Positions 27,600 to 64,000 of a stretch of 64,000 bases of DNA are shown here, piece by piece. The position numbers were made by a program, and so were the translations under genes. Source of the DNA: an uncultured Gemmatimonadota bacterium (GTDB lineage: Bacteria > JAAXHH01). The notes beneath the pieces are model-generated. The model saw nothing but the letters and a program-made list of their open reading frames with translations, did no database searches and was not told where the DNA came from. How positions within the stretch are numbered: the first letter of the stretch is position 1; every line of letters begins with the position of its first letter. The stretch covers positions 2,464,001 through 2,528,000 of the forward strand of contig OX638340.1 of the NCBI GenBank assembly GCA_951812955.1. The letters run 5' to 3'.

Positions 27600-28140
27600 A
27601 TGTTGTATAACGGCGTGGGTAGTCCACTGAAAAAGTACAATATATTGTGTATATGTATTAATATAGTATGAGTATATAAGAAAGACATAATACTAATAAA
27701 GGATGTGGATATGTGCATAAGTGCGTCATATGGATGATAACCACCAATTAAATCAGTTAATTACGTAAAAAACACCATGTGGAAAAAGTAGCACCTAAAC
27801 AGATGTTTATCCACACTTATCCACACACTAAAGACCAGGTACGGCAAAAACACCCGTTTATACACATTGCATCGACAATTCCTATACCCTTATCCCCCGG
27901 GTTATCCACATTAAATACAGCCCCGAATGGGCCTGTTGCGTACATGAACTGACCCGCACCGCTACGTGGCCGTTCCGTCCGGATCGGAAGCCTATCCACA
28001 TCGAGGTCGGATTCCCGTAGTGGATAGGTGTGGAAACTTCGGAAACACAGCGAGTAAACTCTTGTCGGAGAGGAGGTTATGATAGTCTTATATTGTCAAC
28101 AAAATGTGGATAACCACCAACTTATCCACATCGTGGTGGG
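27600..28140. promoter_or_regulatory. oriC: oriC: DnaA-box cluster plus AT-rich DNA unwinding element between dnaA and dnaN
   Basis: perfect TTATCCACA at 27807-15, 27817-25, 27902-10 and 28122-30; TGTGGATAA at 28105-13; one-mismatch boxes at 27704-12, 27982-90 and 28019-27; about 70 bp of near-pure A/T at 27636-27700. Confidence 0.7.
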
Positions 28141-35923: not shown

Positions 35924-35924
35924 A

Positions 35925-36581
35925 ATGGAAACACTCGAGCCATTTGCGCTGCGCATCGAAGAGTTGGGACATCGCCTGGACGCCCGTCAAATAGAGGCAT
36001 TCGAACGGTACCTGGCAGAGATTCGGCGCGTAAACAGTCAGCTCAATCTCGTATCCCATAACGATCTGCAACGGATTCCGACAAGACACTTCCTCGATTC
36101 GGTCATACCCTCCCTGAAGGGCATCTTGCCCCTGGATGATACGATCATCGACATAGGTAGCGGAGGTGGTTTTCCAGGGATTCCTCTTGGCATCCTACTT
36201 CCGGACACATCCTTCTTGCTGGTCGAATCGAATCAGAAAAAGAGTACTTTTCTTCGACAGGTGAGGCGCGTTCTCTCGCTGAATAATGTCAACGTGTGCA
36301 ACGCCCGCATAGAAAATCTGCCGGAATTCGTTAAAGATAGATTGTATGACGGCGCGGTAGCGAGGGCCGTTGGTTCAATAGGTCAACTGGCAGGATGGTG
36401 CGGAGGCGTGCTGAAACCGGGTGGAAAGCTGATTTGTTACAAGGGTCCAGATCCGGAAGTAGAGATCGAGTCAGCCGGGAACGTCTTGGAAGCGGAGGGT
36501 ATGGTCTGGGAAGGAACACATTCATACGACGAAAGTCGCCGTGATTCGCCTACCCTCGTCGTGTTGAGAAAAACAGAATAA
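35925..36581 (+). CDS. rsmG: 16S rRNA (guanine527-N7)-methyltransferase RsmG (GidB)
   Basis: SAM motif IIDIGSGGGFPGIPL; start ATG 1 nt after the mnmG stop. Confidence 0.85.
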   Translation: METLEPFALRIEELGHRLDARQIEAFERYLAEIRRVNSQLNLVSHNDLQRIPTRHFLDSVIPSLKGILPLDDTIIDIGSGGGFPGIPLGILLPDTSFLLVESNQKKSTFLRQVRRVLSLNNVNVCNARIENLPEFVKDRLYDGAVARAVGSIGQLAGWCGGVLKPGGKLICYKGPDPEVEIESAGNVLEAEGMVWEGTHSYDESRRDSPTLVVLRKTE

Positions 36582-48337: not shown

Positions 48338-48383
48338 AGTTAGTATGGAGTTAAATATATTATTGATAACGACTTATGGCGTA

Positions 48384-50951
48384 TTATCGAAATATAGACA
48401 GACGGGAATTTCCTGTCAAGAGAAAGCCATCCAGCACTTGCCTGGGTGAAGGACCGAGGGGTTCCGGCGGAGCGAAGTTATAAAGATCCCAGGACCGGCC
48501 GTTGGTGCGAATGACGACCGCGCCGCCCAGGTCCGTTCTGTACACTTCCGCTCCCCGCCGCCTGTATCGCTCGATGATCTGGGGCGAGGGGTGTCGGAAG
48601 CGGTTGTACATGCCGGCGGAAACGGCCACGGCCTCCGGGTCGACGGCGTTCAGGAAGGCGAAGCTGCTCGACGTGTTGCTCCCGTGATGGGGCGATTTGA
48701 GCACCGTACTTTTCAGTGTGGACGGCCAACGGCCGGTCGCGGCCTCCGCCCTTTCCTCGATGTCACCGGTCAGCAGCATGCTGAATTTACCGTAGAACAG
48801 GCGCAGGACCACAGACACCTCGTTGGCATGGTTTTTCGCGGCACCGGTCAGGAATAGGGGGTCGGGATGGAGAAATAGGCCGCGCACGTCGCCCAGAGCC
48901 GCCAGGGTGTCTCCCTTTACAACTGTACGGTACGGAATGCCGTGCAGGTCGACGGTCTCCCGCCATGCCCGGTAGGATCCGGACTCCGACGGCACGCCGC
49001 TCGAGACGACCTCGCCCACTTCCACGGACTCCACCACGGCCGAAAGTCCACCGTAGTGGTCCAGGTGTGGGTGGGTTACGATCATCGTATCCACGCGCCG
49101 GTAGCCCCCGGCGCGCAGGAAAGGCACGATGACGCGGGCGCCTGCGTCCCAGGTGGGCGACCTGGGACCGCCGTCGACCAGCAGGGTGCGCCCGTTGGGA
49201 CAGGCAATGAAGATGGCGTCGCCCTGTCCGACGTCGAGGACGGTGATCTCAAGCGACCGTTCGGGCAGCAGGCTGTAGCAGAAGAGCAGGATGGAAAGGG
49301 CCACCAGTCCCAGCCGTGCCCGGCGCTCCCGGGGAGCGCCGGGGTTCCAGAGCAGCAGCAGGCCGGCGGCATAAAACGACGCGAAAAAAAGGCCGGAAGG
49401 CGCCGGTACTTTTACCAGTGCGGTTGGCACGCTGGACAAGAACTTCGAGAGATGGATCATGACAAACAGGACCAGGGCGTTTGCGGCGCTGAACAGACGG
49501 GCTATTTCGAAGAAAAGGGGACCGGTCAGGGCGGTGAGAACGCCGAAGGTCGTATTCAGAAAGACCAGCGGCCCGATAAAGAGATTTGCGACCGCCGACA
49601 TCCAGGAAACCTGGTAGAACGTGCCCGCCACCACGGGCAGCGTGCCCAGCTGCGCCGCGATCGAGACCAGCAACCCGTCCCGCAGCCATCGGGACCACCA
49701 CTTCTCCGACCGGGAAAGCCGTTCGGGCAGCAGCTCTTTCATCCTGGGATAACCCGAGATGATGGCGTAGGTCGCGAGAAAAGAAAGCTGGAAGCTCAGG
49801 TCGAAAAGCGCCGAGGGCCAGATCAGGAGTATGACGACGGCCGCCACGGCCAGGATGTTGACGGTGTCGGTCTGCCGATCCAGCTGACGGCCTGCCAGAA
49901 AGAGCGCCGCCATGATCGTGGCCCGGATGACCGAAGGCGTCAGGTTGGTGATGAAGGCGTACAGCACCAGGACGCCCAGCGTGCCGGCTACGACGATGTG
50001 CCGCGGGAGTCTGAGGACGAAAAGCAGCGTATGGATCACCAGGGTGATCAGGCCGACGTGCAGTCCGGAAACGGCCAGGATATGGGCCAGGCCGATCGTC
50101 TTGAAGGTGTCGAGCAGCTCTTCGGGCAGCTGGCGCCGCGCGCCGAGGAGAATGCCTTTCAGCAGGGCGGCGGAATCACCCCGCATGGTCCGGTCGATTG
50201 ATCGCTCGATGCTGTTTCGGAGCGGGTCTATGACGCCGGTCTGCCAGGTGAACGACCGGTTGCGCCGCGTCACGCGATAGCTTGCGGGATCGCGCACGCT
50301 CACGAGCGCGTGGATTCCCCGGCTCTCGTAGTAGGTGCGCGCGTCGAAGCCGCCGGGATTCCGGGCAGGTTGCGGACGGCGCAGGCGGCCCGAAACGAGG
50401 ACCCGGTCGCCGTACCGGCCGGGGTCGATACCGTTGGTCAGGCGAACCTGAAGGCGTCCCGCTACCGGCGAATTACGGCCAGCCGCGGATTCCGACCCGG
50501 CCCGATCAGCCGGAAACCGTCCGGCGGCCGAAAATCGCCCGGTGGCCGGCGACATGCCACGGGATACCTCTGGAGTCCGCCCGGCAACACCAAGGGAGAT
50601 GGAATCAGCGTCCAGGGTGACGACCGTGAATCGGGATCTGACCTCGGGCGTGCGGACGATCGTGCCCGTCAGGGTGTGGCGCTCCCGCTGGTCGCTGAGT
50701 CGCCGGATGTCGTTAGACGGCACGACCCGCATCTGCGCCGCGTACCAGAAAGCGCCCGCGAACACGAGGCACAGGGCCATGCAGATCCGTGGGGATATAG
50801 CGGCGGGACCACGGGTGCGGTAGAGCACGTAACCGGACGCGATAGCCGCCATAGAACACAGCGCGAAAAGCATCGGAGATACGGCGACGCGATGACCCAG
50901 CAGGATACCGAGTACGTAGCAGACCGCGATGAACAGGGCCGGGCGCCGCAT
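48384..50951 (-). CDS. comEC: DNA internalization competence protein ComEC/Rec2
   Basis: polytopic competence domain plus a C-terminal metallo-beta-lactamase segment (VTHPHLDHYGG). Confidence 0.85.
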   Translation of the reverse strand: MRRPALFIAVCYVLGILLGHRVAVSPMLFALCSMAAIASGYVLYRTRGPAAISPRICMALCLVFAGAFWYAAQMRVVPSNDIRRLSDQRERHTLTGTIVRTPEVRSRFTVVTLDADSISLGVAGRTPEVSRGMSPATGRFSAAGRFPADRAGSESAAGRNSPVAGRLQVRLTNGIDPGRYGDRVLVSGRLRRPQPARNPGGFDARTYYESRGIHALVSVRDPASYRVTRRNRSFTWQTGVIDPLRNSIERSIDRTMRGDSAALLKGILLGARRQLPEELLDTFKTIGLAHILAVSGLHVGLITLVIHTLLFVLRLPRHIVVAGTLGVLVLYAFITNLTPSVIRATIMAALFLAGRQLDRQTDTVNILAVAAVVILLIWPSALFDLSFQLSFLATYAIISGYPRMKELLPERLSRSEKWWSRWLRDGLLVSIAAQLGTLPVVAGTFYQVSWMSAVANLFIGPLVFLNTTFGVLTALTGPLFFEIARLFSAANALVLFVMIHLSKFLSSVPTALVKVPAPSGLFFASFYAAGLLLLWNPGAPRERRARLGLVALSILLFCYSLLPERSLEITVLDVGQGDAIFIACPNGRTLLVDGGPRSPTWDAGARVIVPFLRAGGYRRVDTMIVTHPHLDHYGGLSAVVESVEVGEVVSSGVPSESGSYRAWRETVDLHGIPYRTVVKGDTLAALGDVRGLFLHPDPLFLTGAAKNHANEVSVVLRLFYGKFSMLLTGDIEERAEAATGRWPSTLKSTVLKSPHHGSNTSSSFAFLNAVDPEAVAVSAGMYNRFRHPSPQIIERYRRRGAEVYRTDLGGAVVIRTNGRSWDLYNFAPPEPLGPSPRQVLDGFLLTGNSRLSIFR

Positions 50952-51076
50952 GAGCTGCTGTTTCTCTCCATAAAGTGAAGGCGGTCGACAGGATGAGAGG
51001 CTGAATCCGGTGATATGGGTTTTCCACCAGGATTACCTGCTTACTAAGCCATTTCGCTCACCGGTTGCGATATCCT

Positions 51077-51769
51077 TTAGTCCCCCACGATCTTCCCGTC
51101 ACGCAGTCGCAGGATCCGGTCGCAGTGCCTGGCGACGTGCTCTTCATGGGTCACCAGCACGATCGTATGTCCGTCCCCGTTCAGGCGATCGAATATCGCC
51201 ATGACCTCCTCCCCGGTCCCGCTGTCCAGGTTTCCGGTGGGTTCGTCCGCCAGAATGATGGACGGTTCGTTGACCAGCGCACGGGCGATGGCCACACGCT
51301 GGCGTTGTCCGCCGGACATCTCGTTGGGCCGGTGGCGGGCCCGGTCGGCGACACCCACCGCGTCCAGGGCCTCCATGGATCGTCGACTCCTTTCCATTCT
51401 GTTCATCCCACGGTAGAGGAGCGGCAATTCCACATTGCGCAGGGCGTCCATTCTCGGAAGCAAGTTGAAAGCCTGGAACACGAACCCGATCTTGCGGTTC
51501 CGGATGAAAGCCTGTTCATCGTCCGAAAGGTCTCCAACCGGTCTGCCGTCAAGTTCGTAGCTGCCCGCCGTCGGCGTATCCAGGCAACCCAGGATGTTCA
51601 TCAGGGTGGATTTCCCGGAACCCGACTGCCCCATCACAGCTACGTACTCACCCCGGTCTATGGTGGCGGAGACGCCCCGGAGCGCGGTAATGCGGTCGCC
51701 TCCCATGGGGAAGGACTTATGCAGGTTTACGATGGAGATAAGGGACGAGGAACGGATGGATCGATGCAC
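51077..51769 (-). CDS. ABC transporter ATP-binding protein (MacB/LolD type), GTG start
   Basis: Walker [10 protein letters not shown], signature [15 protein letters not shown]; AGGAAG SD before the GTG. Confidence 0.85.
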
Positions 51770-51812
51770 GACGGCTTCCTGTGACCGGGTGTGTGATTCG
51801 GTTCTATACAGG

Positions 51813-51843
51813 TATAGTCGTGGTTAAATGGGAAATCTCGTAC
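51813..51843. repeat. copy 1 of a conserved ~30-nt element (TATAGTCGTGGTTAAATGGGAAATCTCGTAC), 44 nt upstream of the ABC ATPase start
   Basis: three near-identical copies in the window (see also 53613-53644 and 58476-58506). Confidence 0.6.
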
Positions 51844-51913
51844 GGGTTGCTGAATTGACAGGGTGTTCTCAATACCTGGAGTATGTTGTCAATACAAATG
51901 GTAACCAGTTGGG

Positions 51914-52597
51914 TTGACGGGACGTTTGCATCTCTATACCATAGTCGTTGCCCCTAATCATGAAATTGCCCCTGACCAAGGAACCAGTGACATGTCCGCT
52001 CCCGCCTCACGCATGAATGCCCGGCTATTTCTTTACGCAGCTGTCGCAGCCCTCGTCGCATTTAGCATCACCCTCTTCTGGCGCAATTATCAACAAAATC
52101 AAGACCTTCAGATTCTGCAGCATGGGCTATACAACGCCCAGGTAGAAATCCGCGTGCTGCAGGCGACCAATATGTTCGGGGCGCCCTTTATCACCCCCTT
52201 CCCCATGGTCGACCAGCACGGCCAACCTGCTGCATTACCGAATTTCGGTAATGGTCACCTGCTCCTCCTGTTTTTTAATGCGACGCATAGTCCATTTCGC
52301 CTCGACCTGATGTCTACATTTGGGTCGGTGATCGGAGACAATGTCCCGGTTATCGGCATTCTCCAGGCAGAATCGGCCGAGGAGATCTCGCCGATCGTGG
52401 ATCAATTCAGGTACAGCTTTCCGGTGTATCTGGCCGTCGATTCGCCCTTTGATCTGCCGTTTACACCCTACTGCGTGCTGATCGATGGATCCGGCAACGT
52501 GGTACACCTGTCACCCATCGCACCCGTCGGGTCCGCCGATACCCGATCGGTGGAGGCACTTATTTCGGAATTTGCGCAGTTGCTAGAGGGCGGGTAA
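51914..52597 (+). CDS. membrane-anchored TlpA-like thioredoxin-fold protein lacking the CxxC motif (probable start at the internal Met about 51992)
   Basis: TM helix then a redoxin-like fold with LLLLFFNATHSPF in the position of the WCxxC active site. Confidence 0.45.
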   Translation: MTGRLHLYTIVVAPNHEIAPDQGTSDMSAPASRMNARLFLYAAVAALVAFSITLFWRNYQQNQDLQILQHGLYNAQVEIRVLQATNMFGAPFITPFPMVDQHGQPAALPNFGNGHLLLLFFNATHSPFRLDLMSTFGSVIGDNVPVIGILQAESAEEISPIVDQFRYSFPVYLAVDSPFDLPFTPYCVLIDGSGNVVHLSPIAPVGSADTRSVEALISEFAQLLEGG

Positions 52598-52681
52598 GCC
52601 TTTTGCGCAACCTGGTGTGAAGTATCACCGGGCACCCGAAATGACGAATATGTACAATGTAAAACAAGGAGTAGCCTGATC

Positions 52682-53176
52682 ATGATCACTATTCACAAGG
52701 TGTTAATGGTATTATTGGTCCTGTCTGTAACCGCTTGTGGCGATGATGGTCAACCGAAGCAGGCAGGTCAATCGCAAATGGCTGGCCAACCGGACCAGGT
52801 TGGTCAAACGCCAACGGCAAGCCGACCGGACCCTGTGGCCGACCAGAAAGCTGGTATTTATCGGCCCACTACGGTGGACACGAAAGCTGAGATTGTTTAT
52901 TTTCCCCCTGTTCCCACCGACGTCGTCGATCTCGAATTCGATGGCCTCACAGTGATACAACTCGTTGTTGGTACTAATGGCAATGTAGACACGGCATTCG
53001 TCGAAAGATCGTCAGATCGCGTTTCTGTGGACTCTCTGATGCTGGACGTGGCTAAAAAAATGGTCTGGACGCCGGCAGTACATGACGGTGCCCGGGTAAA
53101 GATGCGAACCTCGATCCCGTTTATGTTCAAGATACCCACTCCAACCCCTGGCGAGGAGACCGTCACCGAGGAATAA
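52682..53176 (+). CDS. lipoprotein with a TonB C-terminal-like domain
   Basis: lipobox LSVTAC; Pro/Gln-rich linker; C-terminal about 90 aa TonB_C-like. Confidence 0.5.
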   Translation: MITIHKVLMVLLVLSVTACGDDGQPKQAGQSQMAGQPDQVGQTPTASRPDPVADQKAGIYRPTTVDTKAEIVYFPPVPTDVVDLEFDGLTVIQLVVGTNGNVDTAFVERSSDRVSVDSLMLDVAKKMVWTPAVHDGARVKMRTSIPFMFKIPTPTPGEETVTEE

Positions 53177-53534
53177 GGATCAACGTGAGATACCCCGCAG
53201 ATCGACCGTGAATGCCCTCGTCTTATCAAACCTGCTGTTTCGTTTCGAAGGAGTTACATATCCGGGCGAAGGCCCAAGCAGGCCTTCTATCCGGGAATTA
53301 CGCACGCCCAGGTGCGCAATCCGTTTTTCAATCTACGAAACCCGCTCATCAAGGTGGGCGATACGGTCGCCCAGGCGTATATCGAGTTGAGATATGCGGG
53401 TATCGAGGCTGCGCCAGACAAAGAGCAGGATCCCGATTGCGACGACATTGCTTATGACGTTTGTGGCGTCCACGATCATCTCTTGACTATGTTATTTAAA
53501 AAGTTCCAGCTTCGACATCCTTCGATCTACCTGG

Positions 53535-53612
53535 TTCTGCCAGAACCGGATTGGCCCGAAACGGCCACGTATTCGCCCCGGTTAATGGTGGCGTATACAC
53601 CCCGCAACGCGG
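53535..53612 (-). pseudogene. 5'-deleted fragment of an ABC ATPase gene paralogous to 51077-51769
   Basis: about 75% nt identity to 51640-51700 (codons 26-58 of the intact ATPase) with frame-breaking indels; joined directly to element copy 2, implying a ~115-nt deletion that removed the start codon. Confidence 0.5.
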
Positions 53613-53644
53613 TATAGTCGTGGTTTGGTGGGAAATCTCGTAAC
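53613..53644. repeat. copy 2 of the conserved ~30-nt element
   Basis: TATAGTCGTGGTTTGGTGGGAAATCTCGTAAC. Confidence 0.6.
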
Positions 53645-53793
53645 AAAAGGCTTTGACAAGGAAAGTGTAAGTGTCGTTCGAATGAAAGAGCATTGTACTG
53701 TGGTCAGGAGGTAATTACTTACCATAGACCCGAACGGCTGAAGCAAATGGTGCTAAGAAACAACCACAATCAGAAGTGTTACTTGCTACTGCC

Positions 53794-56193
53794 TTATTCT
53801 GCTTTGAGTGCATCAGCAGGATTCGCCGTCGCGGCTTTCAGCGCATGGTATCCGACCGTAAACCAAGTGATCGTAAGCGCGGCGAGCCCCGTGAGAATGA
53901 ACATCCACAAACCTATTTCGATACGGTACGGAAAACCTTCCAGCCACCCCTGCATGATGTAGTAACTGATAGGTACGCCAAGAACGAGAGCGATCAGGAT
54001 CAGCCAGGTAAAGTCCTTCGACAACAGCAGGATGACGTTCGAAACCGTCGCACCGACTGCCTTGCGAACGCCGATCTCCCTGGTCCGCTGTTCGGCCATG
54101 TAGGACGCCAGTCCCAACAAGCCCAGACAGGCGATCAGAATGGAAAGCGTCGCTCCGGCGATGAAGACGGACCCCAGCCGTTGTTCGGCGGCGTACTTTT
54201 GCTCGAGATCCTGGTCGAGGAAGTAGAATTCCATGGCGGGATGGTTCGGATAGGTTTCGCGCCACTGGTCCTGCAGTATTTCAAGTCCCTGGGTAAGGCT
54301 CTGGCTGCGCAGCCTGGCTACCATCGTATTGCCACCTTCCCAAAACAGAATCAAAAGCGGTTCAATGCGTTGGTGTAGCGTATGGTAGTGGAAATCCGCC
54401 ATGACGCCGACAACGTGCATTGGAGGATAGTCGGGTGTATGGGTATAGGTAAACGTCTTACCAATCGGGTCTTCCCATCCAAAAGACCTGGCAGCCGTTT
54501 CGTTGATAAGAACTGAGTAGTTGTCCGAAGCGACTGCGCGAGAAAACGTACGTCCCGATATTATCTCGATGCCCATTGTTTCTACGAAGTCGAAACCGGT
54601 CCAGATTGTGGGGATGAGCGGGGTATCCTCCACGATATATCCTTCCGGCTGAATGAAACTGGTAGCAGTTAGTCTGCCGGGCACGCTGGTTGTTGTGCTC
54701 AGGTTTACGATTTCAGGATACTGCATCACCTTGTTCCGGAAGGCCGGGAAACCCTGGACGGTCTCATAATCAGGCAGTCGTATAACTACCACGTGCTCTT
54801 TATCGAATCCCAGTTTCTTGTTTCCGATGTACTCCAGTTGCTCCAGTATAACCAACATTCCGACGATCATGATGATCGAGACGACGAACTGGAAGGTGAT
54901 CAGCGCTTTTCTGATAAGCGACGGTGAAACTCCCGTCTTCAACGCTCCGCTAAGTACGACAGCCGGCCTGAAAGAGGAAAGTACGAGGGCTGGGTATCCT
55001 CCGGCGATAATCCCGGTACAAAGTGCGATGGCCGCCAGGGCCGGCATCAGCCACGTGGATTGATAATCCATCTCCAGTGCCTTTCCCGAAAACCGGCTGA
55101 ACTCGGGCAGGAGCAGGTGTACCAGTGCCAGCGCCACGGCCAGGGCGATGAAGGCGAAGAAAACCGACTCGCCGATGAATTGCCCGATCAACTGGACCCG
55201 CTGGGCGCCCAGCACTTTCCGAATACCGACCTCCTGCGCCCGTCGTGCCGAACGGGCCGTGGATAGGTTCATGAAGTTCACGCAGGCGATCAGCAACATG
55301 AATATAGCCACCGAGGTGAAGATGTAGACATATCGAATGTCGCTGTTCGCTTTTATCTCAAGTTTGAAATTGGAGTGCAGATGGATATCGGTGAGCGGCT
55401 GCAGATAGGGTCTGAATTCCATGCCCAGCGTCTCCAGTCGTTCACCGAGGTGCCTTACCGGAAACTGGGGAAGTTTGTCTTCCAGGTCTTCCGGCGCGTA
55501 TCCCTCTTGAATCAGGAGATAGGTATACAGGGTTCTGTCCATGTTCTGGATCGTGGTCGGCTCGTTGTATATCCCGCTCGCCGAGAGAGTGGAAAACGAA
55601 GCAAGAAAGTCGGCGCGAAAATGCGAGTTCTTTGGCATATCGCGCATGATGCCCGTGACGGTAAACATGTAGATTTCGTCTGCGGAAATCACTTTCCCAA
55701 TCGGGTTCTCATTCCCGAAAATCATCTCCGCCATGGTTTCGGAAACGACAACGGTATGGGGTTTAGTCAGGGCCGTCTGGGGATTGCCCTGAACCAGAGG
55801 GAAGGTGAAAATGTCAAATACGGTTGAATCCGCAAAAATGAAGTATTTCTCCTCATAACTTTTTTCTTCGTAACCAATGAGCCAACTGGAATCCGGCGGC
55901 TTCCACCGGGTGAACTGCTCAATTTCTGGATACTCCTCCTTCAGGACCGGACCCCACGCTGATGGCGTCCTCGCCCATTCGTCCGTTCTGCCTTCCGCGG
56001 TACCAGATACCACTATTCGGTAAATCCGGTCTTTGCGCTCGTGGTGCTGATCGTAACTGAGCTCGTCCTCCACGTAGAGCAGGATCAGAATGCAGGAAGT
56101 CAGACCGATGGCCAGACCCAGGACATTAATCGTGGAATAGCCCCTGTGCCTGAACAGGTGCCTCAAAATGACGGTAACGTAGTTTCTGAACAT
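53794..56193 (-). CDS. ABC transporter permease with two FtsX domains (MacB-like, about 800 aa)
   Basis: MacB_PCD-like N-terminus and two four-TM FtsX modules. Confidence 0.85.
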   Translation of the reverse strand: MFRNYVTVILRHLFRHRGYSTINVLGLAIGLTSCILILLYVEDELSYDQHHERKDRIYRIVVSGTAEGRTDEWARTPSAWGPVLKEEYPEIEQFTRWKPPDSSWLIGYEEKSYEEKYFIFADSTVFDIFTFPLVQGNPQTALTKPHTVVVSETMAEMIFGNENPIGKVISADEIYMFTVTGIMRDMPKNSHFRADFLASFSTLSASGIYNEPTTIQNMDRTLYTYLLIQEGYAPEDLEDKLPQFPVRHLGERLETLGMEFRPYLQPLTDIHLHSNFKLEIKANSDIRYVYIFTSVAIFMLLIACVNFMNLSTARSARRAQEVGIRKVLGAQRVQLIGQFIGESVFFAFIALAVALALVHLLLPEFSRFSGKALEMDYQSTWLMPALAAIALCTGIIAGGYPALVLSSFRPAVVLSGALKTGVSPSLIRKALITFQFVVSIIMIVGMLVILEQLEYIGNKKLGFDKEHVVVIRLPDYETVQGFPAFRNKVMQYPEIVNLSTTTSVPGRLTATSFIQPEGYIVEDTPLIPTIWTGFDFVETMGIEIISGRTFSRAVASDNYSVLINETAARSFGWEDPIGKTFTYTHTPDYPPMHVVGVMADFHYHTLHQRIEPLLILFWEGGNTMVARLRSQSLTQGLEILQDQWRETYPNHPAMEFYFLDQDLEQKYAAEQRLGSVFIAGATLSILIACLGLLGLASYMAEQRTREIGVRKAVGATVSNVILLLSKDFTWLILIALVLGVPISYYIMQGWLEGFPYRIEIGLWMFILTGLAALTITWFTVGYHALKAATANPADALKAE

Positions 56194-56323
56194 GACGTAT
56201 TATCAGTGCCGATTTATGGACGATCGTAGAGATCGCTTAATAGCGTGCTCGACTATGTTCAGAGTGCTTTCCACGTGCAAAGTGCTTCGGTTTTCGTAAT
56301 CTGGATGCCCCGTCCATCGTCGG

Positions 56324-58198
56324 TCAACCATGTTCAGAGTCCTTCAGCACTTCAATTTTGGTCTGTCCGCTTTCCGTAGCGATTACGACATCGGTATTCC
56401 CATATTCATAGGTTGTCCCTAACGACATTCTAATGTTATTACTCGACCATGCATTGAGAGGCATCAATTCCTTTACCTCTTCATACTTCAGTACACCGCA
56501 ACGGGTATGCATAACCAAGCTGGTAGTTTTCGCTGCTTTTTCGCTTAACGCCAGTATCAGGTTGCCGGAAACGGTACGGAGGTTGCACCTGCCCCTTCGA
56601 ATACCGTCAGTGTAGCACAGCCGAGTGGTGCCATAGCGGTTGAAAATGGAAACATCTCCATTTAGATCACGTGCATCCAACACAGTACGACCGACTTCCA
56701 TATCCACACCGCCACTGATTGACTCGATCTTTCCTTCCCACTGATCTGGGCGTGCTAACATGTCGTGATCCAAGCTGCTTCCCCCACAGCCGTACATACG
56801 CTGATATACCAATCCGCTTACCTGTCGTATTTTGGAGAACTCGCTGTTGAAAAGATAGACATCTCCTGTGATTCCCTGTATATGGCAGGAATAGCAGGAA
56901 TACATTAAAAGTGAACCTTTCAAACCATCCACATTGACCTTATTGGATCTGAAAACCGACATTCTCATCCCGGCGGGAACCGAAATCGACATATGGCAAT
57001 ACGTGGCATGGCCGAATAGATTCGTTTCGTCGGTACAAACAGCTTCGAAAATATCCTCGACATTGCCTGACACGGTCGCTCTCGGCAATTCTATGGGTCG
57101 TACATTCGAAGTGTGAACAGTGATACGTAGTGATTTCCCCAGACTGTTTCCCACAGGTTTCGGCAGGGGCAGAAATCCGTCGACTTCATGCTTCAAATCT
57201 GGAAACATGTCGACCGTTCTTACACCGCCGACATTATCCTCCAGCACGCGGTCATTAATCAGATCACTTCTCCAGAATTTACTGATTGGCGACGTAGCGG
57301 CTACGTAATCAGATCCATAAGGGTTGCTGGTACCAAGAAACAACGCCCCTTCGTGGGGGCCTGTTTCCAGGTAGTTGGCGACCTGGTCATGAGATATATG
57401 AAAGCCGCTGAGGTTGCTTCGCGATTCTTCTTCCGTCAGACCCAACGCGATCTTCGAACCTTCAACAATAACCTGTTTTCCCTGTGCCTGCTTAATATCG
57501 ACCTCCGTATTCACGCCGCAGTAGAGGACAATGTTTTTCGTGTCTCCCATGTCTATGGTTTCACTGAAATCTTCTCTGGCGATCTTGCAGACCACATCCT
57601 GTACTTCATCGGTCACATCGATCTGGCTCATGGCGATGGTCTCCTTTTCCTGAGGCGACAGTGCTGCTCTCAGCCGGATCCGGGACTGGAATAGCCGTCC
57701 TTTCACCGTCGATTCGGGAATGTCCAGAAACGAGGCGATTTCCTTCAGTGAAAAACCGGTGTAGTAGTACAAATTGACGATCTGGCGATAGTGTTCGGGC
57801 AGTCTCTCGACTTCATCCCAAAGCTCGAGACACTCGAGGTATTCCCGATGGATCTGGTCCGCCAGGGGGAATTCGTCGCGCATATGTTCAGCATCCGGAT
57901 CGACTCGGACCAGACGATCAACCTTCTTCCGACGGCGCGATTCCTTGCATCGGTTGACGACGATTCTGTGAAACCAACTACCGAAAACGGCCGGGTCCTT
58001 CAATTGCGACAACTTGCAGTAAGCGGCAACGAATGCATCCTGTACCACGTCCTCCGCGTCTGTTCGATCCCGAAGGAATCCCAGCGCTACGGCGAAAGCG
58101 GCGTTCTGGTACCGCCGGACCAGCGGCTCGAAGGCGTCGGCGTTTCCCTGCAGGCACTGCAGGATGCTGTAAGTGTCGTCGTGTGTTGTTTTCGCCAT
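56324..58198 (-). CDS. ECF sigma factor (about 185 aa, regions 2 and 4) fused to a ~430-aa C-terminal extension of unknown function
   Basis: sigma-2 DAEDVVQDAFVAAY...FGSWFHRIVVNRC and sigma-4 LYYYTGFSLKEIASFLDIPESTVKGRL; no TM; conserved Cys cluster YCHMSI...CYSCH. Confidence 0.75.
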   Translation of the reverse strand: MAKTTHDDTYSILQCLQGNADAFEPLVRRYQNAAFAVALGFLRDRTDAEDVVQDAFVAAYCKLSQLKDPAVFGSWFHRIVVNRCKESRRRKKVDRLVRVDPDAEHMRDEFPLADQIHREYLECLELWDEVERLPEHYRQIVNLYYYTGFSLKEIASFLDIPESTVKGRLFQSRIRLRAALSPQEKETIAMSQIDVTDEVQDVVCKIAREDFSETIDMGDTKNIVLYCGVNTEVDIKQAQGKQVIVEGSKIALGLTEEESRSNLSGFHISHDQVANYLETGPHEGALFLGTSNPYGSDYVAATSPISKFWRSDLINDRVLEDNVGGVRTVDMFPDLKHEVDGFLPLPKPVGNSLGKSLRITVHTSNVRPIELPRATVSGNVEDIFEAVCTDETNLFGHATYCHMSISVPAGMRMSVFRSNKVNVDGLKGSLLMYSCYSCHIQGITGDVYLFNSEFSKIRQVSGLVYQRMYGCGGSSLDHDMLARPDQWEGKIESISGGVDMEVGRTVLDARDLNGDVSIFNRYGTTRLCYTDGIRRGRCNLRTVSGNLILALSEKAAKTTSLVMHTRCGVLKYEEVKELMPLNAWSSNNIRMSLGTTYEYGNTDVVIATESGQTKIEVLKDSEHG

Positions 58199-58475
58199 AG
58201 GGTAGTTGTCGTCTTAAGGGTTTCGTACAAAATCAGATAATAAGGAAGCGTTACATAGAATAAGATGACCTTGCGGCCTCAACGGTTAAAAACAAAATCG
58301 TGTATATGGTGGCGGTCAGGTCTCGAAGAGTTGAAATACGGCCTATCCCCTCATGGAATGACCTTTCGAGACCGACAACGCAGATTTTGGGGTCGATTCG
58401 TATCGGTAGGTTCAGATTCAAAAGGATGCACGACTCATGACCGGTATCGGAAGCGTATTCAACTTCCTATCACGC

Positions 58476-58506
58476 ATAGTCGTGGTTTGGTGGGCAATTT
58501 CGAACG
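58476..58506. repeat. copy 3 of the conserved ~30-nt element, between the two sigma-fusion paralogs
   Basis: ATAGTCGTGGTTTGGTGGGCAATTTCGAAC. Confidence 0.6.
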
Positions 58507-58537
58507 TACAGTTACCTGCGGGGTTCGAGACTTAAAC

Positions 58538-60412
58538 TCACTTCATCGCGTCGGGGCCATCTGACAACTCGACTTCGGCGGTGCCACTTTCTGTAAGGAG
58601 CAGATAGTCCGCGTGCGTTGTATCATACGTAGTTCCGGCCGTGATGCGATGCCCGTCGTTATATGTCGAATAGAGCCGCATCACGTCCTTTGCCTGACCC
58701 AATTTCAAGACGCCACAACGCGTATACATCACAACGCTGACCGTCTTTGCGAGTCTTTCATCCAGAACCAGCTTTGCCTCGCCAGAGACGGTCCTGAGGT
58801 TACAACGAGTTCCGGATTCCCGGGATGACTGGTACAAGCGGGTTGTACCGAATCGGTTGTAAATGGATACGTCACCCTCCAGGTCCTGCGCGTCCAGCAC
58901 GAAACGGCCGACATCGATATCCACACTGCCCTTTATATTGGATAGTTTTCCTTCCCACACATCCGTGTTGCGTATCATTCCGTCAAGGTAGCTCGCGGCG
59001 CCGTATTCATACATTCGCTGACAGAACACACCGCCTACTTCATGTATATCCGAAAACATGCTGTTGAACAGGTACACATCCTTCGAGATACCGGTTATCT
59101 GGCAGGAATGGCAGGCATACACCATCAAGGAACCGTTCAATCCCTCCGCGTTGATCCGCTTCGCCTTGAACACCGAAATGTTCTTTCCGGCCGGGACCTC
59201 AATAGAAACATGACAGTACGAGGCCGGTCCGAAAACCTTGGAATCATCGGACCAGTAAACCTGGAAAACATCCTTGATGCTTTCCGTCATGGCGGAGTTC
59301 GGTACATGAATCGGCCGTACTTCCATCGTGTGAACCGAAATCCGTATTGATTTGCTCAAGCTCGCACGCGCCGGTTTTGGCAGCGGAGGAAACGTATCGA
59401 TATCGTCTTTAAGATCCGGGTACAGATCGACCAATCTCACCCCGTTACAAACTTCGTCCAGCATCCAGTCGTTCATCAGATCCCGTCTCCAGTGGTCGCT
59501 GATCCGTTTGGTCATAGCTGCGTTTTCGCCACTGGTTGAATCTACACCGACAAAAAGCTCACCTTCATGGGGACCGGCTTTATAGAAATCATCGACCGTA
59601 TCGTGGGAAACGGCAAATCCGCCAAGGTTGAGGGTTGCCTCTTCTTCGCTAAAACCAAGCGCGATCTTCGAACCTCTCACAACAACCTGTTCTCCTTGCG
59701 CCTGCTTAATCTCAACCTCCGTACTCACGCCGCAATAGAGGACGATGTTCTCTACGTCGCCCATGTCGATCGTTTCTACAAAATCCTCCTTGGCGATCCG
59801 GCAGACAACATCCTGGACCTCTTCGGTTACGTCGATCTGGCTCATGGCAATGGTCTCCTTTTCCTGTGGGGACAACGCCTCTCTCAGCCGGATTCTGGAC
59901 TGATAGAGGCGTCCCCGCGCCGTGGATTGCGGAATGTCCAGAAAGGCAGCGATTTCTTTCAGTGAGAAGCCGGTGTAGTAGTACAACGTGACGACCTGGC
60001 GATAAAGTTCCGGGAGCTGCTCGACTTCATCCCAGATTTCGAGACGCTCGATGTATTTTTGATGGATACGATCCGACATAGCGAATTCATCGCGAGATTC
60101 TCCAGAAACCGTATCGACGCGGACTTGACGACCGATTCTGCTTCGTCGGACCAGCTCCTTGCAACGGTTGACAACGATTCGGTGAAACCAACTGCCGAAA
60201 ACGGCCGGGTCCTTCAACTGCGACAGCTTGCAGTAGGCGGCCACAAAAGCATCCTGTACCACGTCCTCCGCGTCTGTTCGATCCCGAAGGTAACCCAGAG
60301 CCACGGCGAAAGCGGCATTCTGGTACCGCCGGACCAGCGGCTCGAAGGCGTTGGCGTTTCCCTGCAGGCACTGGCGGATGTTATAGGTATCGTCGTGTAT
60401 GAGAGTGGTCAT
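58538..60412 (-). CDS. paralogous ECF sigma factor fused to a ~430-aa C-terminal extension
   Basis: same architecture and length (624 aa) as 56324-58198; N-terminal 185 aa nearly identical. Confidence 0.75.
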   Translation of the reverse strand: MTTLIHDDTYNIRQCLQGNANAFEPLVRRYQNAAFAVALGYLRDRTDAEDVVQDAFVAAYCKLSQLKDPAVFGSWFHRIVVNRCKELVRRSRIGRQVRVDTVSGESRDEFAMSDRIHQKYIERLEIWDEVEQLPELYRQVVTLYYYTGFSLKEIAAFLDIPQSTARGRLYQSRIRLREALSPQEKETIAMSQIDVTEEVQDVVCRIAKEDFVETIDMGDVENIVLYCGVSTEVEIKQAQGEQVVVRGSKIALGFSEEEATLNLGGFAVSHDTVDDFYKAGPHEGELFVGVDSTSGENAAMTKRISDHWRRDLMNDWMLDEVCNGVRLVDLYPDLKDDIDTFPPLPKPARASLSKSIRISVHTMEVRPIHVPNSAMTESIKDVFQVYWSDDSKVFGPASYCHVSIEVPAGKNISVFKAKRINAEGLNGSLMVYACHSCQITGISKDVYLFNSMFSDIHEVGGVFCQRMYEYGAASYLDGMIRNTDVWEGKLSNIKGSVDIDVGRFVLDAQDLEGDVSIYNRFGTTRLYQSSRESGTRCNLRTVSGEAKLVLDERLAKTVSVVMYTRCGVLKLGQAKDVMRLYSTYNDGHRITAGTTYDTTHADYLLLTESGTAEVELSDGPDAMK

Positions 60413-60442
60413 GTTGAATCAAATCGAAGTCTGAATGCAGTT

Positions 60443-61441
60443 TTAGTCGAGATATGCATCAAAAGCCGCCAGCAGTGAAGGATAGTAATCTTCGAAGGTC
60501 ATATCTTGAATATGATGCTGCTCGAAATCCTCAAGTGCTCGAATAAGGGCGGGGAGGTAGTGAAACCCCTTTTCTATATCTCGCACGAGTAAACGATCAC
60601 CGTGTTTTGGACCCGTTTCTCTATGAAACAATCGAGACGTAATGGCGCGTATCAAATGTTCGTTCAAGCATATCTCCCAAGCCCCATAGCCACCCGCCTT
60701 AGCCATTTTATCTAGTATCGGGTCCAACAATGAGGCGTACTTCCCGATGTCAGGGCGATGTCGTTCAGTAACGGGATTAACGAACGAATGGCCGAACTCA
60801 TGCCAGATGAGTTCCAGCAATTCGTCTCTTGTTCCATACACCGGAATACCTTCAACCGATCCGACAGGCCCTATCACGCTGAATATGGACAGCCTGTTAT
60901 CAGGATGTCGGACTCGAGGTCCGATCCCACCGTGTTGAAACAAGGGGCTCAAAACCAGGTTGTAGTCACGATGTCGCATTCCATAGTATTGTTCCAAGAC
61001 GTCGATCAAATTCTCACTGCCCAGTGTTTGAAAAACTGTGTCAATTAAGGATTTGTAGTACGTGGTTTGGCTTTCAAAAAAAGTACCAAAGTCCGATTGG
61101 ATCGCAAAATCACTCAGTAGTTTGTAGAATGTTCGAAACCGGGTTTCGCCTTGAAATGCTCGAATGTAGTATTCGTAGTTTTCGTACGGGAATATAGGTG
61201 TGAGTCCCGGCAGTTCCGACAGCGACAACACCGGACCCAGGTAGGCGTCCGAGTAAGTACCATTCTCTGTGATTTTCCTAAACAGCTTGACTGCCTCATG
61301 CGTTTTGAATGGCGAAAAGTAATCCCGCATGTACTGGGAATACGCCACATCGTACCTGGTTAGTCCTTCATAGTCGCACAGCAACTTTATAGTGATGACA
61401 AGTTCAATTCTGGGATCTACGTCGATGCTCAGCCTGGTCAT
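60443..61441 (-). CDS. HExxH-motif (WHEFGH) putative zinc metallopeptidase-like protein, cytoplasmic
   Basis: 332 aa; no signal peptide; ELLELIWHEFGHSF. Confidence 0.5.
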   Translation of the reverse strand: MTRLSIDVDPRIELVITIKLLCDYEGLTRYDVAYSQYMRDYFSPFKTHEAVKLFRKITENGTYSDAYLGPVLSLSELPGLTPIFPYENYEYYIRAFQGETRFRTFYKLLSDFAIQSDFGTFFESQTTYYKSLIDTVFQTLGSENLIDVLEQYYGMRHRDYNLVLSPLFQHGGIGPRVRHPDNRLSIFSVIGPVGSVEGIPVYGTRDELLELIWHEFGHSFVNPVTERHRPDIGKYASLLDPILDKMAKAGGYGAWEICLNEHLIRAITSRLFHRETGPKHGDRLLVRDIEKGFHYLPALIRALEDFEQHHIQDMTFEDYYPSLLAAFDAYLD

Positions 61442-61503
61442 CTCTATTTCTCCGTGCTCGGCGAAAGGAGTCGGTATATCTCGACCGAGGATACCGAATG
61501 CAC

Positions 61504-62394
61504 TTACCGTCCGTACCCGCTTTCTTTAAAAAAACGTAGCGCATCGGGGCCGTCCTTTATGGCCAGAATGTCCTCAATAGCCGCCTTTTTATCAGCCCTC
61601 TTCTCGTAGTATGCTTCACATATCTTGTACCCTACGTAGTATCCAAGGTCAGCAGGCCTTGCTCCCGTGCCGCTGCCGCCGTTGTAGAGCCATTTGCTCA
61701 TATCGGTTTGTAACATTTCATTCGAGAACGATTCCCACAATTCAGTTTCGTGCGCCTCTCCATACACGTGCAAATGAGGGTTGATGTGTTTTCCAGTTGC
61801 TAACTCTCCAAGGAAATCGGCAGCACCTTCGAGTATGGAGTGACCCAGTAGTGTGTTTTCTCCAAAATCATAGGCCTGTTGAGTGTGTATAAGTTCGTGG
61901 ATAACGATAAATGGAATCTCTTCTACCGGTTTGAGGACTTCAAGATACCATTCGTTCAGTTCGTCCGAAGGAAGATCGTCCGTCCGGCACCAAATTTCGG
62001 TCCCGATCAGCAGCCCATTGCTCGACGTTGTTCCGCCGGAGGTCATTTTGCCAATCATAAAGTACACATCTGGAAAATCTGCCTTACTGTATAGTTGCTT
62101 CCAGTTGTGCATATACCCACGGATCTGATCGGTCAAATCCAACACACGGTTTGAACTCTCTCTTATAGAAGCGTAATACCTCGGTCGGGCTTCGATTACC
62201 TTGACCAACTCATCCGCACTCTCGATTCTGGATTCGATGAAATCTTTTAAACCGATACTGCCCTTTGCGAAGTACTCCGATTCGAAGATGTTTATCATTT
62301 CTTCTGTAGTCTTGCCTTCTGACAGGTCGTACGCCAGCCAGAAACGATCGATATCGGAAGTAACCAACCGGACGTCGTCGGGATCGTTACTCAT
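61504..62394 (-). CDS. HExxH-motif (IHELIH) putative zinc-dependent protease-like protein (DUF2268-like)
   Basis: 296 aa; no signal peptide; FIVIHELIHTQQ...GENTLL; GGGAGG SD. Confidence 0.5.
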   Translation of the reverse strand: MSNDPDDVRLVTSDIDRFWLAYDLSEGKTTEEMINIFESEYFAKGSIGLKDFIESRIESADELVKVIEARPRYYASIRESSNRVLDLTDQIRGYMHNWKQLYSKADFPDVYFMIGKMTSGGTTSSNGLLIGTEIWCRTDDLPSDELNEWYLEVLKPVEEIPFIVIHELIHTQQAYDFGENTLLGHSILEGAADFLGELATGKHINPHLHVYGEAHETELWESFSNEMLQTDMSKWLYNGGSGTGARPADLGYYVGYKICEAYYEKRADKKAAIEDILAIKDGPDALRFFKESGYGR

Positions 62395-62796
62395 TGAGGA
62401 AAACCTCCCTGTTTGCTGAGCATAGGCTATTGCGAAACTCGTACCAGCAGAAATACCAACAAAGGACCATGCACGTCTCGAATCTCGTTGAGTTCATAAC
62501 AGACATGATCATGGGTCTAGTTTTCCTTTGCCAGTCTGCACCCTGTGAAGAAGTCTGAATCGGTCGACCGTATGTTGACCGTACATGGTTTACAGGTGTT
62601 GATTGCCCGATGAGGGACATAACCCTCTGATAGTTTAGACGCTTCAGTACTCCAATTGATCAAAATCGAATTTGTTGGTTCTGTGAATTTGCAAATGAGA
62701 AGTCCACACACGATCATAAGAGGGACATTTACACATCGTACGTTTTGTCCTCAATTTCGTGGTCTGGTTGTTCACTGTATACACCCCACCGCATCA

Positions 62797-62824
62797 TTGA
62801 CACCGGCACCGATTCCCTTATATT
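62797..62824 (+). promoter_or_regulatory. sigma70-like promoter (TTGACA, 16 nt, TATATT) for the redoxin gene
   Basis: read directly in the AT-rich intergenic region. Confidence 0.4.
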
Positions 62825-62908
62825 CTATATATAGGTATTACTACATATAAAAAGGATCACGAGAGCAGGCTGAATACCATTAGCATTTCAAACTGAACAG
62901 GAGTAGTC

Positions 62909-63403
62909 ATGGCGTTCCTGGAAGCCGGGGTCGCGGCCCCGGAAGTCACCCTGGAAGACGCGGACGGACAATCGACGTCGCTGGCCGACCTGACTAACGG
63001 CGGCTGGTTGCTGGCCGTCTTTTACAAGGTGGGCTGCGGGACCTGCAAGTTCAGCGCCCCCTATTTCGAGAAGATCCACCAGGCTTACGGCGGCAAGCAG
63101 GGATTCCGGGTGCTCGGTGTCTCGCAGGACACGCCGGAGGACACCCGCGCTTTCATGGACGAACACGGCGCTTCCTTCGAGAACGTGTACGACGCCACCC
63201 ACTGGGCCTCCGCGGATTTCGGCCTGACGAACGTGCCGACGTGGTTTCTCATGGACGAAAACGGCGGCATACTGGACAGCAACACGGGCTTCTGCCGGAC
63301 CGACCTCAACGAGTTGTCGGTGACCGTCGCGGCCCATCTCGGCGAAGAGGCCGTTGTCATTTCGCCGGGGGACGACGGCGCGCCCGAACTGAAGCCTGGA
63401 TGA
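62909..63403 (+). CDS. thioredoxin-fold thiol-disulfide oxidoreductase (TlpA/redoxin family) with a CxxC motif
   Basis: WLLAVFYKVGCGTCKF. Confidence 0.65.
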   Translation: MAFLEAGVAAPEVTLEDADGQSTSLADLTNGGWLLAVFYKVGCGTCKFSAPYFEKIHQAYGGKQGFRVLGVSQDTPEDTRAFMDEHGASFENVYDATHWASADFGLTNVPTWFLMDENGGILDSNTGFCRTDLNELSVTVAAHLGEEAVVISPGDDGAPELKPG

Positions 63404-63644
63404 GGCTCCAAACAACCGGTCGGGCCTCGACCGTAACCCGGACATAAGAAAACGAAACCTGGAAGGCGGCCGCTTCGGCCCGGATCGAATGTTCCCGGCG
63501 CCGGAGGGTCGCTTTTTGTTCCTGTAGAGCGCAAATGATGCCGGTAAATCTGACGTCATGCCGGCCACGGTAGCGCTGAACCATACGAATCTTCACGCGT
63601 CGACCTCAGGATCACGTGCATCACAGCGGGAACATCAAGGAACC

Positions 63645-64000
63645 ATGAGCGAATCGACTACATCCCACGTCCCCAAGCCCCCGTGGCTCAAGGTACGCCT
63701 GAAGCAGGGGCCGAACTTTCGGGAACTGAAGCGCCTGGTCGGAGACAACCGGCTTCACACCATCTGCGAGAGTGCCCAGTGCCCGAATATCTGGGAATGC
63801 TGGGAGCAGCGGACCGCCACCTTCATGATTCTGGGAGATATTTGCACGCGAAGCTGCGGGTTCTGTGCGGTGAAGACGGGCCGGCCGGACAAGGGGCTGG
63901 ACTGGGACGAGCCCGAGCGCGTGGCCGGGGCCGTGGAGAAGCTGGGCCTGCGGTTCGCCGTGATCACCTCGGTCAACCGGGACGAGCGGACCGACGGCGG
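63645..64000 (+). CDS. lipA: lipoyl synthase, 3'-truncated by the window end
   Basis: PKPPWLKVRL...CESAQCPNIWECW...CTRSCGFCAV radical-SAM and auxiliary cluster motifs. Confidence 0.85.
   Translation, partial: MSESTTSHVPKPPWLKVRLKQGPNFRELKRLVGDNRLHTICESAQCPNIWECWEQRTATFMILGDICTRSCGFCAVKTGRPDKGLDWDEPERVAGAVEKLGLRFAVITSVNRDERTDG

Follow-up and report, generated by a model that had tools for sequence, protein, structure and literature searches.

The subject of this analysis is an interval of low guanine plus cytosine (GC) content on contig OX638340.1 (assembly GCA_951812955.1) of an uncultured Gemmatimonadota bacterium, within a stretch of 64,000 nucleotides (nt) that was analysed as a whole and is called the window below. 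The interval (10,940 bp) lies between the gene of an ABC ATPase and a redoxin gene, and carries two paralogous sigma-factor fusions of the extracytoplasmic function (ECF) type, sigA and sigB, together with a duplicated permease, two putative peptidases, a membrane-anchored protein (orf227) and a lipoprotein. All of its open reading frames (ORFs) are accounted for, the island genes in the window are intact (8/8), and the gene set is free of housekeeping functions. Table 1 gives the coordinates of these features and of their neighbours.

Table 1. Features of the low-GC interval and of its two edges (window coordinates; aa, amino acids; UTR, untranslated region)
Feature	Position	Strand	Evidence and remarks
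comEC	48384-50951	-	high-GC, conserved
LolD/MacB-type ABC ATPase gene, left anchor	51077..51769	-	PF00005 1.7e-33; MacB and LolD NCBIfam matches; GC 0.61
Motif copy 1, TATAGTCGTGGTT...GGGAAATCTCG, left-boundary marker	51813..51840	+	sequence repeat
Island proper, variable low-GC interval	51842..62781		homology breakpoints and GC
ECF-type promoter candidate of orf227-TonB_C, GGTAACC-N16-CGTT	51900..51926	+	overlaps a sigma-70-like match
orf227, 201 aa from ATG at 51992, membrane-anchored	51992..52597	+	one N-terminal hydrophobic segment
Lipoprotein with TonB C-terminal domain	52682..53176	+	PF03544 1.2e-6, TIGR01352; N-terminal hydrophobic signal ending ...VTAC
Pseudogene, small transmembrane plus coiled-coil protein	53231..53532	-	in-frame stop, MIVDATNVISNVV...DERVS*IEKR
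ATPase pseudogene fragment, Walker-A region, about aa 27-55	53532..53614	-	75% nt identity to L001 ATPase gene; reads TALRGVYATINRGEYVAVSGQSGSG
Motif copy 2	53613..53640	+	with copy 1, 31-nt direct repeats around 51842-53610
Duplicated MacB/FtsX permease, ADOP-like, 799 aa	53794..56193	-	MacB_PCD 5e-33, FtsX 1.6e-25, two stretches each
sigA, ECF sigma (aa 1-185) plus 435-aa C-terminal extension	56324..58198	-	Pfam/NCBIfam
P2, ECF-type promoter candidate TGTTTTTAACC-N16-CATC	58262..58294	-	heads sigA-FtsX
Motif copy 3 plus ATPase 5'UTR plus first two ATPase codons (GTG CAT, minus strand)	58426..58502	+	relic junction in the sigB-sigA spacer
sigB, paralogous ECF sigma fusion	58538..60412	-	61% identical to sigA overall
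DUF4932 protein, putative peptidase	60443..61441	-	PF16286 3e-52
DUF2268/GldB-like predicted Zn-dependent protease	61504..62394	-	PF10026 1.7e-11, PF25594 5.4e-11
P1, ECF-type promoter candidate TTTTGATC-N16-CGTC	62638..62665	-	heads DUF2268-DUF4932-sigB; homologous site in L026 upstream of DUF2268
Redoxin upstream region, conserved right anchor	62782..62908	+	homology to relatives restarts here
Redoxin gene	62909-63403	+	right flank

The composition of the interval sets it apart from the rest of the window. Its GC content is 0.508, against 0.616 elsewhere, and 0 of 410 same-size windows placed outside it have a GC content below 0.565. Windows of 1 kb average 0.511 inside (maximum 0.543) and 0.616 outside. 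GC at third codon positions (GC3) is 0.51-0.66 in the island genes and 0.75-0.86 in core genes, and GC at first and second positions (GC1 and GC2) is likewise lower in the island. Tetranucleotide usage correlates with that of the remaining window at 0.838, compared with 0.90-0.94 for core segments. The initial annotation, made from the letters alone, had described a low-GC island of about 11 kb next to the origin region; scans of GC and of tetranucleotide signature both deviate over 51842-62781, beyond the window's own variation, and bear the description out, and dnaA, dnaN, recF, dciA and DnaA boxes do lie in the window. The drop that it gave, from about 65% to about 50%, is real, but the flanks stand at about 62-64%. 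Its summary of the content as regulator, peptidase and transporter modules with no housekeeping function agrees with the ORF and family matches, and the AT-rich non-coding stretch that it placed at 62395-62908 is present, with a GC content of 0.41-0.48. It had also seen no integrase, tRNA or direct repeats. No mobility family (integrase, transposase) is found among the Pfam and NCBIfam matches of the island ORFs, which also show no integron features, and ARAGORN detects no tRNA or tmRNA in the entire 64-kb window; direct repeats, however, do exist, and are described below. Rfam, searched at a permissive threshold over positions 50000-64000, matched no RNA family, and PADLOC gave 0 matches on the island proteins, which are thus not a known defence system.

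The most distinctive genes are the two sigma fusions. Their only recognizable sigma regions are Sigma70_r2 and Sigma70_r4_2, within residues 1-185 (TIGR02937 scores of 82-83.5 bits against a cutoff of 42.9), and this part has structural matches to SigW, AlgU, and SigH. The extension matches no Pfam model at E<=10, the DUF4097 and DUF2807 models included, and contains no hydrophobic segment; it folds as an alpha/beta domain followed, at the end, by a right-handed beta-helix like that of DUF2807/DUF4097 proteins. The two parts have diverged unequally: sigA and sigB are 81-85% identical in sigma2/sigma4 and 49-62% in the extension, and the paralogs of the clade as a whole are 82-87% and 52-64% identical, respectively. 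Among 1.84 billion representative proteins, 86 match the extension (86 clusters at 50% identity), nearly all of them 600-630 aa long and matched from residue ~185-200, which indicates that the domain exists essentially only as a sigma fusion. Three apparently stand-alone homologs of 435 aa (P0076, P0079, and P0081) were rejected as gene-call artefacts; at L026 the sigma part lies in frame directly upstream. Plasmid and phage collections matched only the generic sigma domain, never the full-length fusion, and close homologs of the fusions are confined to the clade described below. The island encodes no anti-sigma factor; the fused extension is found instead. Two distant homologs (L024 and L025, 37% identical) are followed, after a gap of 17 bp, by the gene of an 813-aa MacB/FtsX permease, an adjacency which indicates that the link between sigma factor and permease is older than the island. 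The sigma and permease genes of these two loci share the GC content of their own flanks. More generally, the sigma homologs of L024 (1-12315) and L025 (2153-12312) lie within arrays of 3-4 genes for duplicated MacB/FtsX permeases of ~800 aa, interspersed with low-GC toxin-antitoxin pairs (HicB/PIN, Gp49/HTH).

The permease of the island has nine hydrophobic segments and contains PF12704 and PF02687 twice each. Its match to the ADOP family TIGR03434 (3.8e-85, 287 bits) is below the family cutoff of 622. At L021 and L023 a permease gene stands directly upstream of the ATPase gene. Among the island genes there is no membrane-fusion protein (MFP) or outer-membrane partner, and a literature search for ADOP permeases tied to sigma factors returned no relevant match. 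As for the remaining cargo, orf227 has no Pfam or NCBIfam match at E<=10 and may be read as a thioredoxin-fold, TlpA-like protein. The DUF4932 protein lacks a signal peptide and hydrophobic segments, and its close homologs are found in this clade only, the next best being 43% identical. Homolog searches yielded no outside donor for either the DUF4932 protein or the sigma fusions.

Candidate promoters of the ECF type precede several of these transcription units. An element TGTTTTGATC-N16-CGTC occurs upstream of sigma-containing units at 12 related loci (L003, L005, L006, L007, L013, L014, L016, L018, L019, L021, L023, and L026). Upstream of orf227, GGGAACC-N16-CGTT is exact in 8 of the 10 carriers, L013 has the near-match GGGAACA-N16-CGTT, and L011 lacks it. 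No ECF-type promoter is evident directly upstream of the permease gene, which would most simply be co-transcribed with sigA. An extra segment of 181 bp in the leader of the DUF2268 gene (62412-62592) was considered as a small mobile element and rejected, being homologous to the L004 leader, a variable 5' region.

The same interval could be followed in related genomes. A scan based on ComEC retrieved 21 orthologous loci, in metagenome-assembled genomes (MAGs) labelled Candidatus Latescibacterota, "Gemmatimonadetes" or "bacterium", and look-ups of sigma-fusion homologs added the orthologous loci L023 and L026 as well as the distant homolog loci L024, L025, and L027. Isolate or sample names point to sponge metagenomes for many of the 21 loci, and several of the assemblies are complete chromosomes of 3.5-4 Mb. 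The ATPase gene is found in all relatives (81-98% aa identity). In about 20 related genomes the interval between it and the redoxin gene is low in GC (0.47-0.54, with flanks at 0.59-0.64); the position holds in every relative whose contig covers both genes, with breakpoints that agree within a few bases. Nucleotide homology between the window and nearly all relatives ends at 51841/51842 and restarts at 62778-62785, and these shared break points mean that the variable interval has fixed edges across the clade. Between these edges its length in the relatives varies from 0.13 kb (0.33 kb between coding sequences) to more than 8.5 kb, with one or two sigma fusions present at about 18 of the 21 informative loci; orf227/TonB_C, DUF2268, DUF4932, and permease genes are variably present beside them. 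Even genomes whose flanks are ~94-97% identical at the nucleotide level differ: the interval measures 10.9 kb in the window, ~9.4 kb with other cassettes in L023, and 0.13 kb in L001.

L001, with flanks ~94-95% identical to those of the window, has the ATPase gene directly followed by the redoxin gene. Its spacer of 132 bp includes 42 bp that match the 5' end of sigA at 93% identity and that of sigB at 90%, and that encode, on the minus strand, ...ANADAFEPLVRR, the conserved sigma N-terminus. The presence of this relic means that L001 has lost the island, and that its short spacer is a deletion and not an ancestral empty site. Two other relatives carry unrelated cargo at the hot spot, low in GC as well. 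The hot spot of L020 (7270-9033) holds one 587-aa gene for a NERD plus UvrD-like helicase, without a sigma module; the best PADLOC match of this helicase is RTasNERD-Hel (1e-44), a defence-associated family. That of L011 (1775-8118) contains two large ORFs (904 and 1080 aa) with 0 Pfam or PADLOC matches, and orf227, TonB_C and one permease gene are placed beyond comEC in this genome, outside the interval.

The divergence of the island genes was compared with that of their flanks by the simple Nei-Gojobori method, which is here applied to genes of differing base composition and may bias the comparison: synonymous divergence (dS) from L023 is 0.07-0.13 for FtsX, sigA and sigB and 0.08-0.13 for comEC, ATPase and redoxin, and from L021 and L008 it is 0.42-0.68 in the island and 0.41-0.55 in the flanks. 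Equal values in island and flanks mean that the island genes were in place before these lineages split. The ratio of nonsynonymous to synonymous divergence (dN/dS) is 0.10-0.28 throughout, no higher in the island than in the flanks. The island orthologs have thus been resident for a long time and evolve under purifying selection. Substitutions on the branches of the window and L023, polarised by parsimony with L021 as single outgroup (dS ~0.5), comprise 73 AT-to-GC and 108 GC-to-AT changes in the island, against 33 and 147 in the flanks. These counts suggest that the island is not ameliorating toward the host and has been kept about 11 points below the GC content of the latter, with no drift toward it. 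A separate observation concerns the core genes at 45629-51769: although their GC3 is ~0.8, recent substitutions (relative to L023 and L021) are strongly GC-to-AT, 147 against 33, an excess which implies that selection or biased gene conversion, not mutation, maintains the high GC of the lineage.

How the interval was built is suggested by a motif of 27-31 nt, of which the window contains three copies where none is expected by chance. Copy 3 proper spans 58475-58502, and copy 1 sits precisely at the left boundary; the right boundary has no copy. In the window and in relatives (L001, L013, L018, L020, L023, and others) the motif precedes the ATPase start codon by 46-70 nt. As a promoter of the sigma-70, Bacteroidetes or ECF type, read in either direction, the 28-nt motif gave no convincing fit; it could act as an operator, a leader element or a recombination site. 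Copy 2 is followed, in the direction of the ATPase gene, by the 83-bp Walker-A fragment and then by the small-protein pseudogene; the latter is 72-84% identical at the nucleotide level to the spacers between ATPase gene and comEC of L003-L021, the site of an intact gene. The relic junction at copy 3 recurs in L023. Copies elsewhere number two in L013, which has a comparable partial ATPase duplicate, and two in L023, where a single copy stands at the site of copies 1 and 2 and the sequence between the 31-nt repeats, exactly 51843-53610, is missing. Since the repeats carry additional sequence of the ATPase gene, they are duplicated junctions and not attachment (att) cores, and each island block ends in a remnant of the motif-ATPase junction. 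The island would have grown by stepwise accretion or duplication anchored on the 5' junction of the ATPase gene and eroded afterwards, possibly by one-sided homologous recombination with DNA of related strains or by tandem duplication. Differences in content would also arise from deletions (as in L001), turnover of paralogs and, occasionally, replacement by unrelated cargo (as in L020).

A second, small variable spot occupies the stretch from the ATPase stop codon to the start of comEC in L003-L021 and L026 (for example L006 9298-10000 and L026 15096-16037). In many relatives it holds 1-3 small low-GC genes for transmembrane plus coiled-coil repeat proteins, with sequences such as MDATNVISNVV... 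and MENVQLW...KVDARF repeats. The window has a 125-bp spacer only at this spot, and the pseudogene copy sits inside the island.

We assign a probability of about 0.7 to the reading that 51842-62781 is a clade-wide, position-fixed flexible genomic island of sponge-associated Latescibacterota, made up of old residents and including a local ECF regulon. If a foreign island of 11 kb had recently entered this genome, that would account for the atypical GC, GC3 and tetranucleotide usage and for the absence of the island from the close relative L001, and acquisition was what the initial annotation had proposed. Such an event is highly improbable, given that about 20 relatives have homologous low-GC genes at this site, an observation which the annotation itself had named as refuting an acquisition. 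It is further opposed by the equality of island and flank dS, the sigma relic that marks L001 as a loss, the lack of an integrase or tRNA, the homolog searches that yielded no donor, and the absence of the fusion from known plasmids and phages. The annotation is accordingly upheld in part, for a compositional island and a genuine hot spot, and not for a recent insertion; the synteny comparison does place the ATPase gene directly before the redoxin gene in one close relative, L001, but there by deletion, and the mechanism, which it had called unclear, is not wholly so, as the ATPase 5'-junction relics point to anchored accretion. A foreign contig piece joined to the chromosome during assembly or binning would also produce a sharp compositional break; with the same junctions, within a few bases, in more than 20 independent assemblies including the complete chromosomes, this can hardly be credited at all.

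Relaxed selection on a dispensable region, where AT-biased mutation would affect genes on their way to becoming pseudogenes, would fit the relics within the island, the AT-biased spectrum of recent substitutions and the apparently damaged genes of relatives. The sigma-fusion gene of L006 (2836-4116) appears internally deleted, without ~aa 224-400, and those of L013 (4531-6410) and L018 (7285-9154) appear frameshifted, each through real decay or assembly error; orf227/TonB_C is truncated in L003 and L014. As an explanation of the low GC, decay is nevertheless very unlikely, because the island genes of the window are intact, dN/dS is no higher than in the flanks and the promoter candidates are conserved. 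A single acquisition by the clade ancestor from a lower-GC donor, followed by vertical inheritance, differential loss and slow amelioration, deserves more attention, although we consider it unlikely. GC1, GC2 and GC3 are all lower, tetranucleotide usage deviates, the genes co-diverge with the flanks, many presence patterns fit differential loss, and the sigma and permease genes of L024 and L025 stand at flank GC, so that the family is not inherently low in GC. Yet no donor is detectable, the AT-to-GC excess that amelioration predicts is not seen, and the unrelated cargo of L020 and L011 is also low in GC, which speaks more for a feature of the site or of the flexible gene pool than for one event. 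The low GC may thus be ancient and foreign in origin, or may belong to the site itself or to the flexible gene pool.

Several points weigh against the interpretation as an old flexible island with its own regulon. The lower GC1 and GC2 and the deviating tetranucleotide signature may reflect acquisition from a lower-GC donor, earlier than the radiation of the clade. The relatives are mostly MAGs, and the limits of the dS method and of the single-outgroup polarisation given above apply. The apparently damaged sigma genes of L006, L013 and L018 indicate that the module is dispensable and apparently sometimes decays. The -35 element TTTTGATC differs from the classic GGAAC, and L024 and L025 have a similar candidate element with a spacer 2 nt shorter. 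Finally, three elements are inferred rather than observed: that these particular sigma factors use the promoters, that the extension acts as a sensor, and that ATPase and permease work as a pair.

The regulon envisaged within this flexible island would work as follows. Two soluble sigma factors would activate transcription of the units in which they are encoded, through a common promoter, TTTTGA(T/A/C)C-N16-CGTC, with the 435-aa extension serving as a sensor or regulatory domain that replaces a separate anti-sigma factor. The same units would also encode an exporter of the MacB/ADOP type, presumably energised by the adjacent conserved ATPase, as well as the two putative metallopeptidases, and accessory envelope or peptidase genes would be switched on together with the exporter. 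The near identity of sigma2/sigma4 suggests one promoter specificity, and the divergence of the extensions suggests different input signals. It is a more tentative idea, possible but on balance doubtful, that the 624-aa fusions represent an undescribed ECF group of one-component transducers, in which the beta-helix replaces the anti-sigma factor and may sense flux through the MacB/ADOP exporter, with paralogs, alike in promoter specificity but diversified in their sensor domains, accumulating as cassettes at one hot spot of sponge symbionts, the low GC of which would have been stable throughout the history of the clade.

The locus can be compared with several known systems. It shares atypical composition with classical horizontally acquired islands, but has no mobility genes, no tRNA/tmRNA site and no direct repeats (att) at both ends; nor is it young or sporadically present through gain, dS being equal and L001 a loss. 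It is closer to the flexible genomic islands (fGIs), additive or replacement, that are described at conserved positions in marine and freshwater bacteria (PMC10872708). Like these, it occupies a fixed place between core genes, with an atypical composition, a size ranging from 0.13 kb to more than 10 kb and a content that varies among close relatives and is occasionally supplanted by unrelated cargo; like additive fGIs, it has sequence repeats of the insertion site that recur inside the island. By contrast, it is anchored at the 5' junction of a gene that codes for a protein and not at the 3' end of a tRNA, an integrase, transposase or integron is absent, its cassettes are mostly old and have diverged together with the flanks instead of being recent imports, and one family, the sigma fusions, forms a near-constant core. 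Considered purely as an island, the locus belongs to a familiar type and is ordinary, apart from its unusual protein-gene anchor and the lack of a recombinase.

The fusions themselves resemble other ECF groups that bear extensions, in which an extension on the sigma factor itself stands in for an anti-sigma factor (PMC8999054). Here too there are sigma2 and sigma4 only, no separate anti-sigma gene, a conserved C-terminal extension and a candidate ECF-type promoter (AAC/CGT-like) upstream of the protein's own gene. However, the SnoaL-like, TPR or Cys-rich extension domains of ECF41, ECF42, and ECF238 are not found by Pfam at E<=10; the extension is much longer (435 aa), has no Pfam match and consists of alpha/beta and beta-helix parts, and the conserved neighbour is a MacB/ADOP permease. 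The sigma fusions are probably an undescribed ECF group. The right-handed beta-helix fold is shared with the DUF4097/DUF2807 'putative adhesin' proteins (PDB 3lyc, 3jx8, 3ljy, 3pet, 4qrk; 7muc_AM), but identity is 7-12%, no Pfam model matches, and the domain is here cytoplasmic and fused to a sigma factor. With MacB-type (type VII) ABC transporters and ADOP proteins the island has in common the doubled MacB_PCD and FtsX domains of its 799-aa permease and the adjoining LolD/MacB-like ATPase; the score below the ADOP cutoff and the lack of an MFP or outer-membrane partner in the island set it apart.

The surroundings of the island call for few remarks. The redoxin gene is preceded by a strong sigma-70-like promoter at 62797-62824 (TTGACA-16-TATATT, 11 of 12 positions matching). 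The origin-region genes of the window are dnaA, dnaN, recF, dciA, rnpA, mnmE, and mnmG, and the low-GC spacer between dnaN and dnaA contains 10 matches to the DnaA box (TTATCCACA, at most 1 mismatch; 5 exact) at 27704-28130; this cluster, which lies about 24 kb away from the island, probably marks oriC. A second low-GC patch at 35-37 kb (35844-36581, GC ~0.50) overlaps a 245-aa ORF downstream of mnmG, whose product appears to resemble rsmG/gidB through its GGGFPGIPL motif.

For genome scans, this locus is a caution: a sharp drop of 11 GC points in a stretch free of housekeeping genes mimics a fresh transfer, whereas the genes concerned are under selection and match their flanks in age, and the seemingly empty relative has undergone a deletion. 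It also offers a clean natural example of how an island may grow with no integrase involved, by duplication or recombination that recurs at the 5' junction of a single gene. Furthermore, it has brought to light a rare family that joins an ECF sigma factor to a large domain without a Pfam match and comes with a recognizable promoter candidate and a conserved exporter partner. The set of sigma fusion and exporter would constitute a testable regulatory module in uncultured sponge symbionts, and is the part most worth following up.

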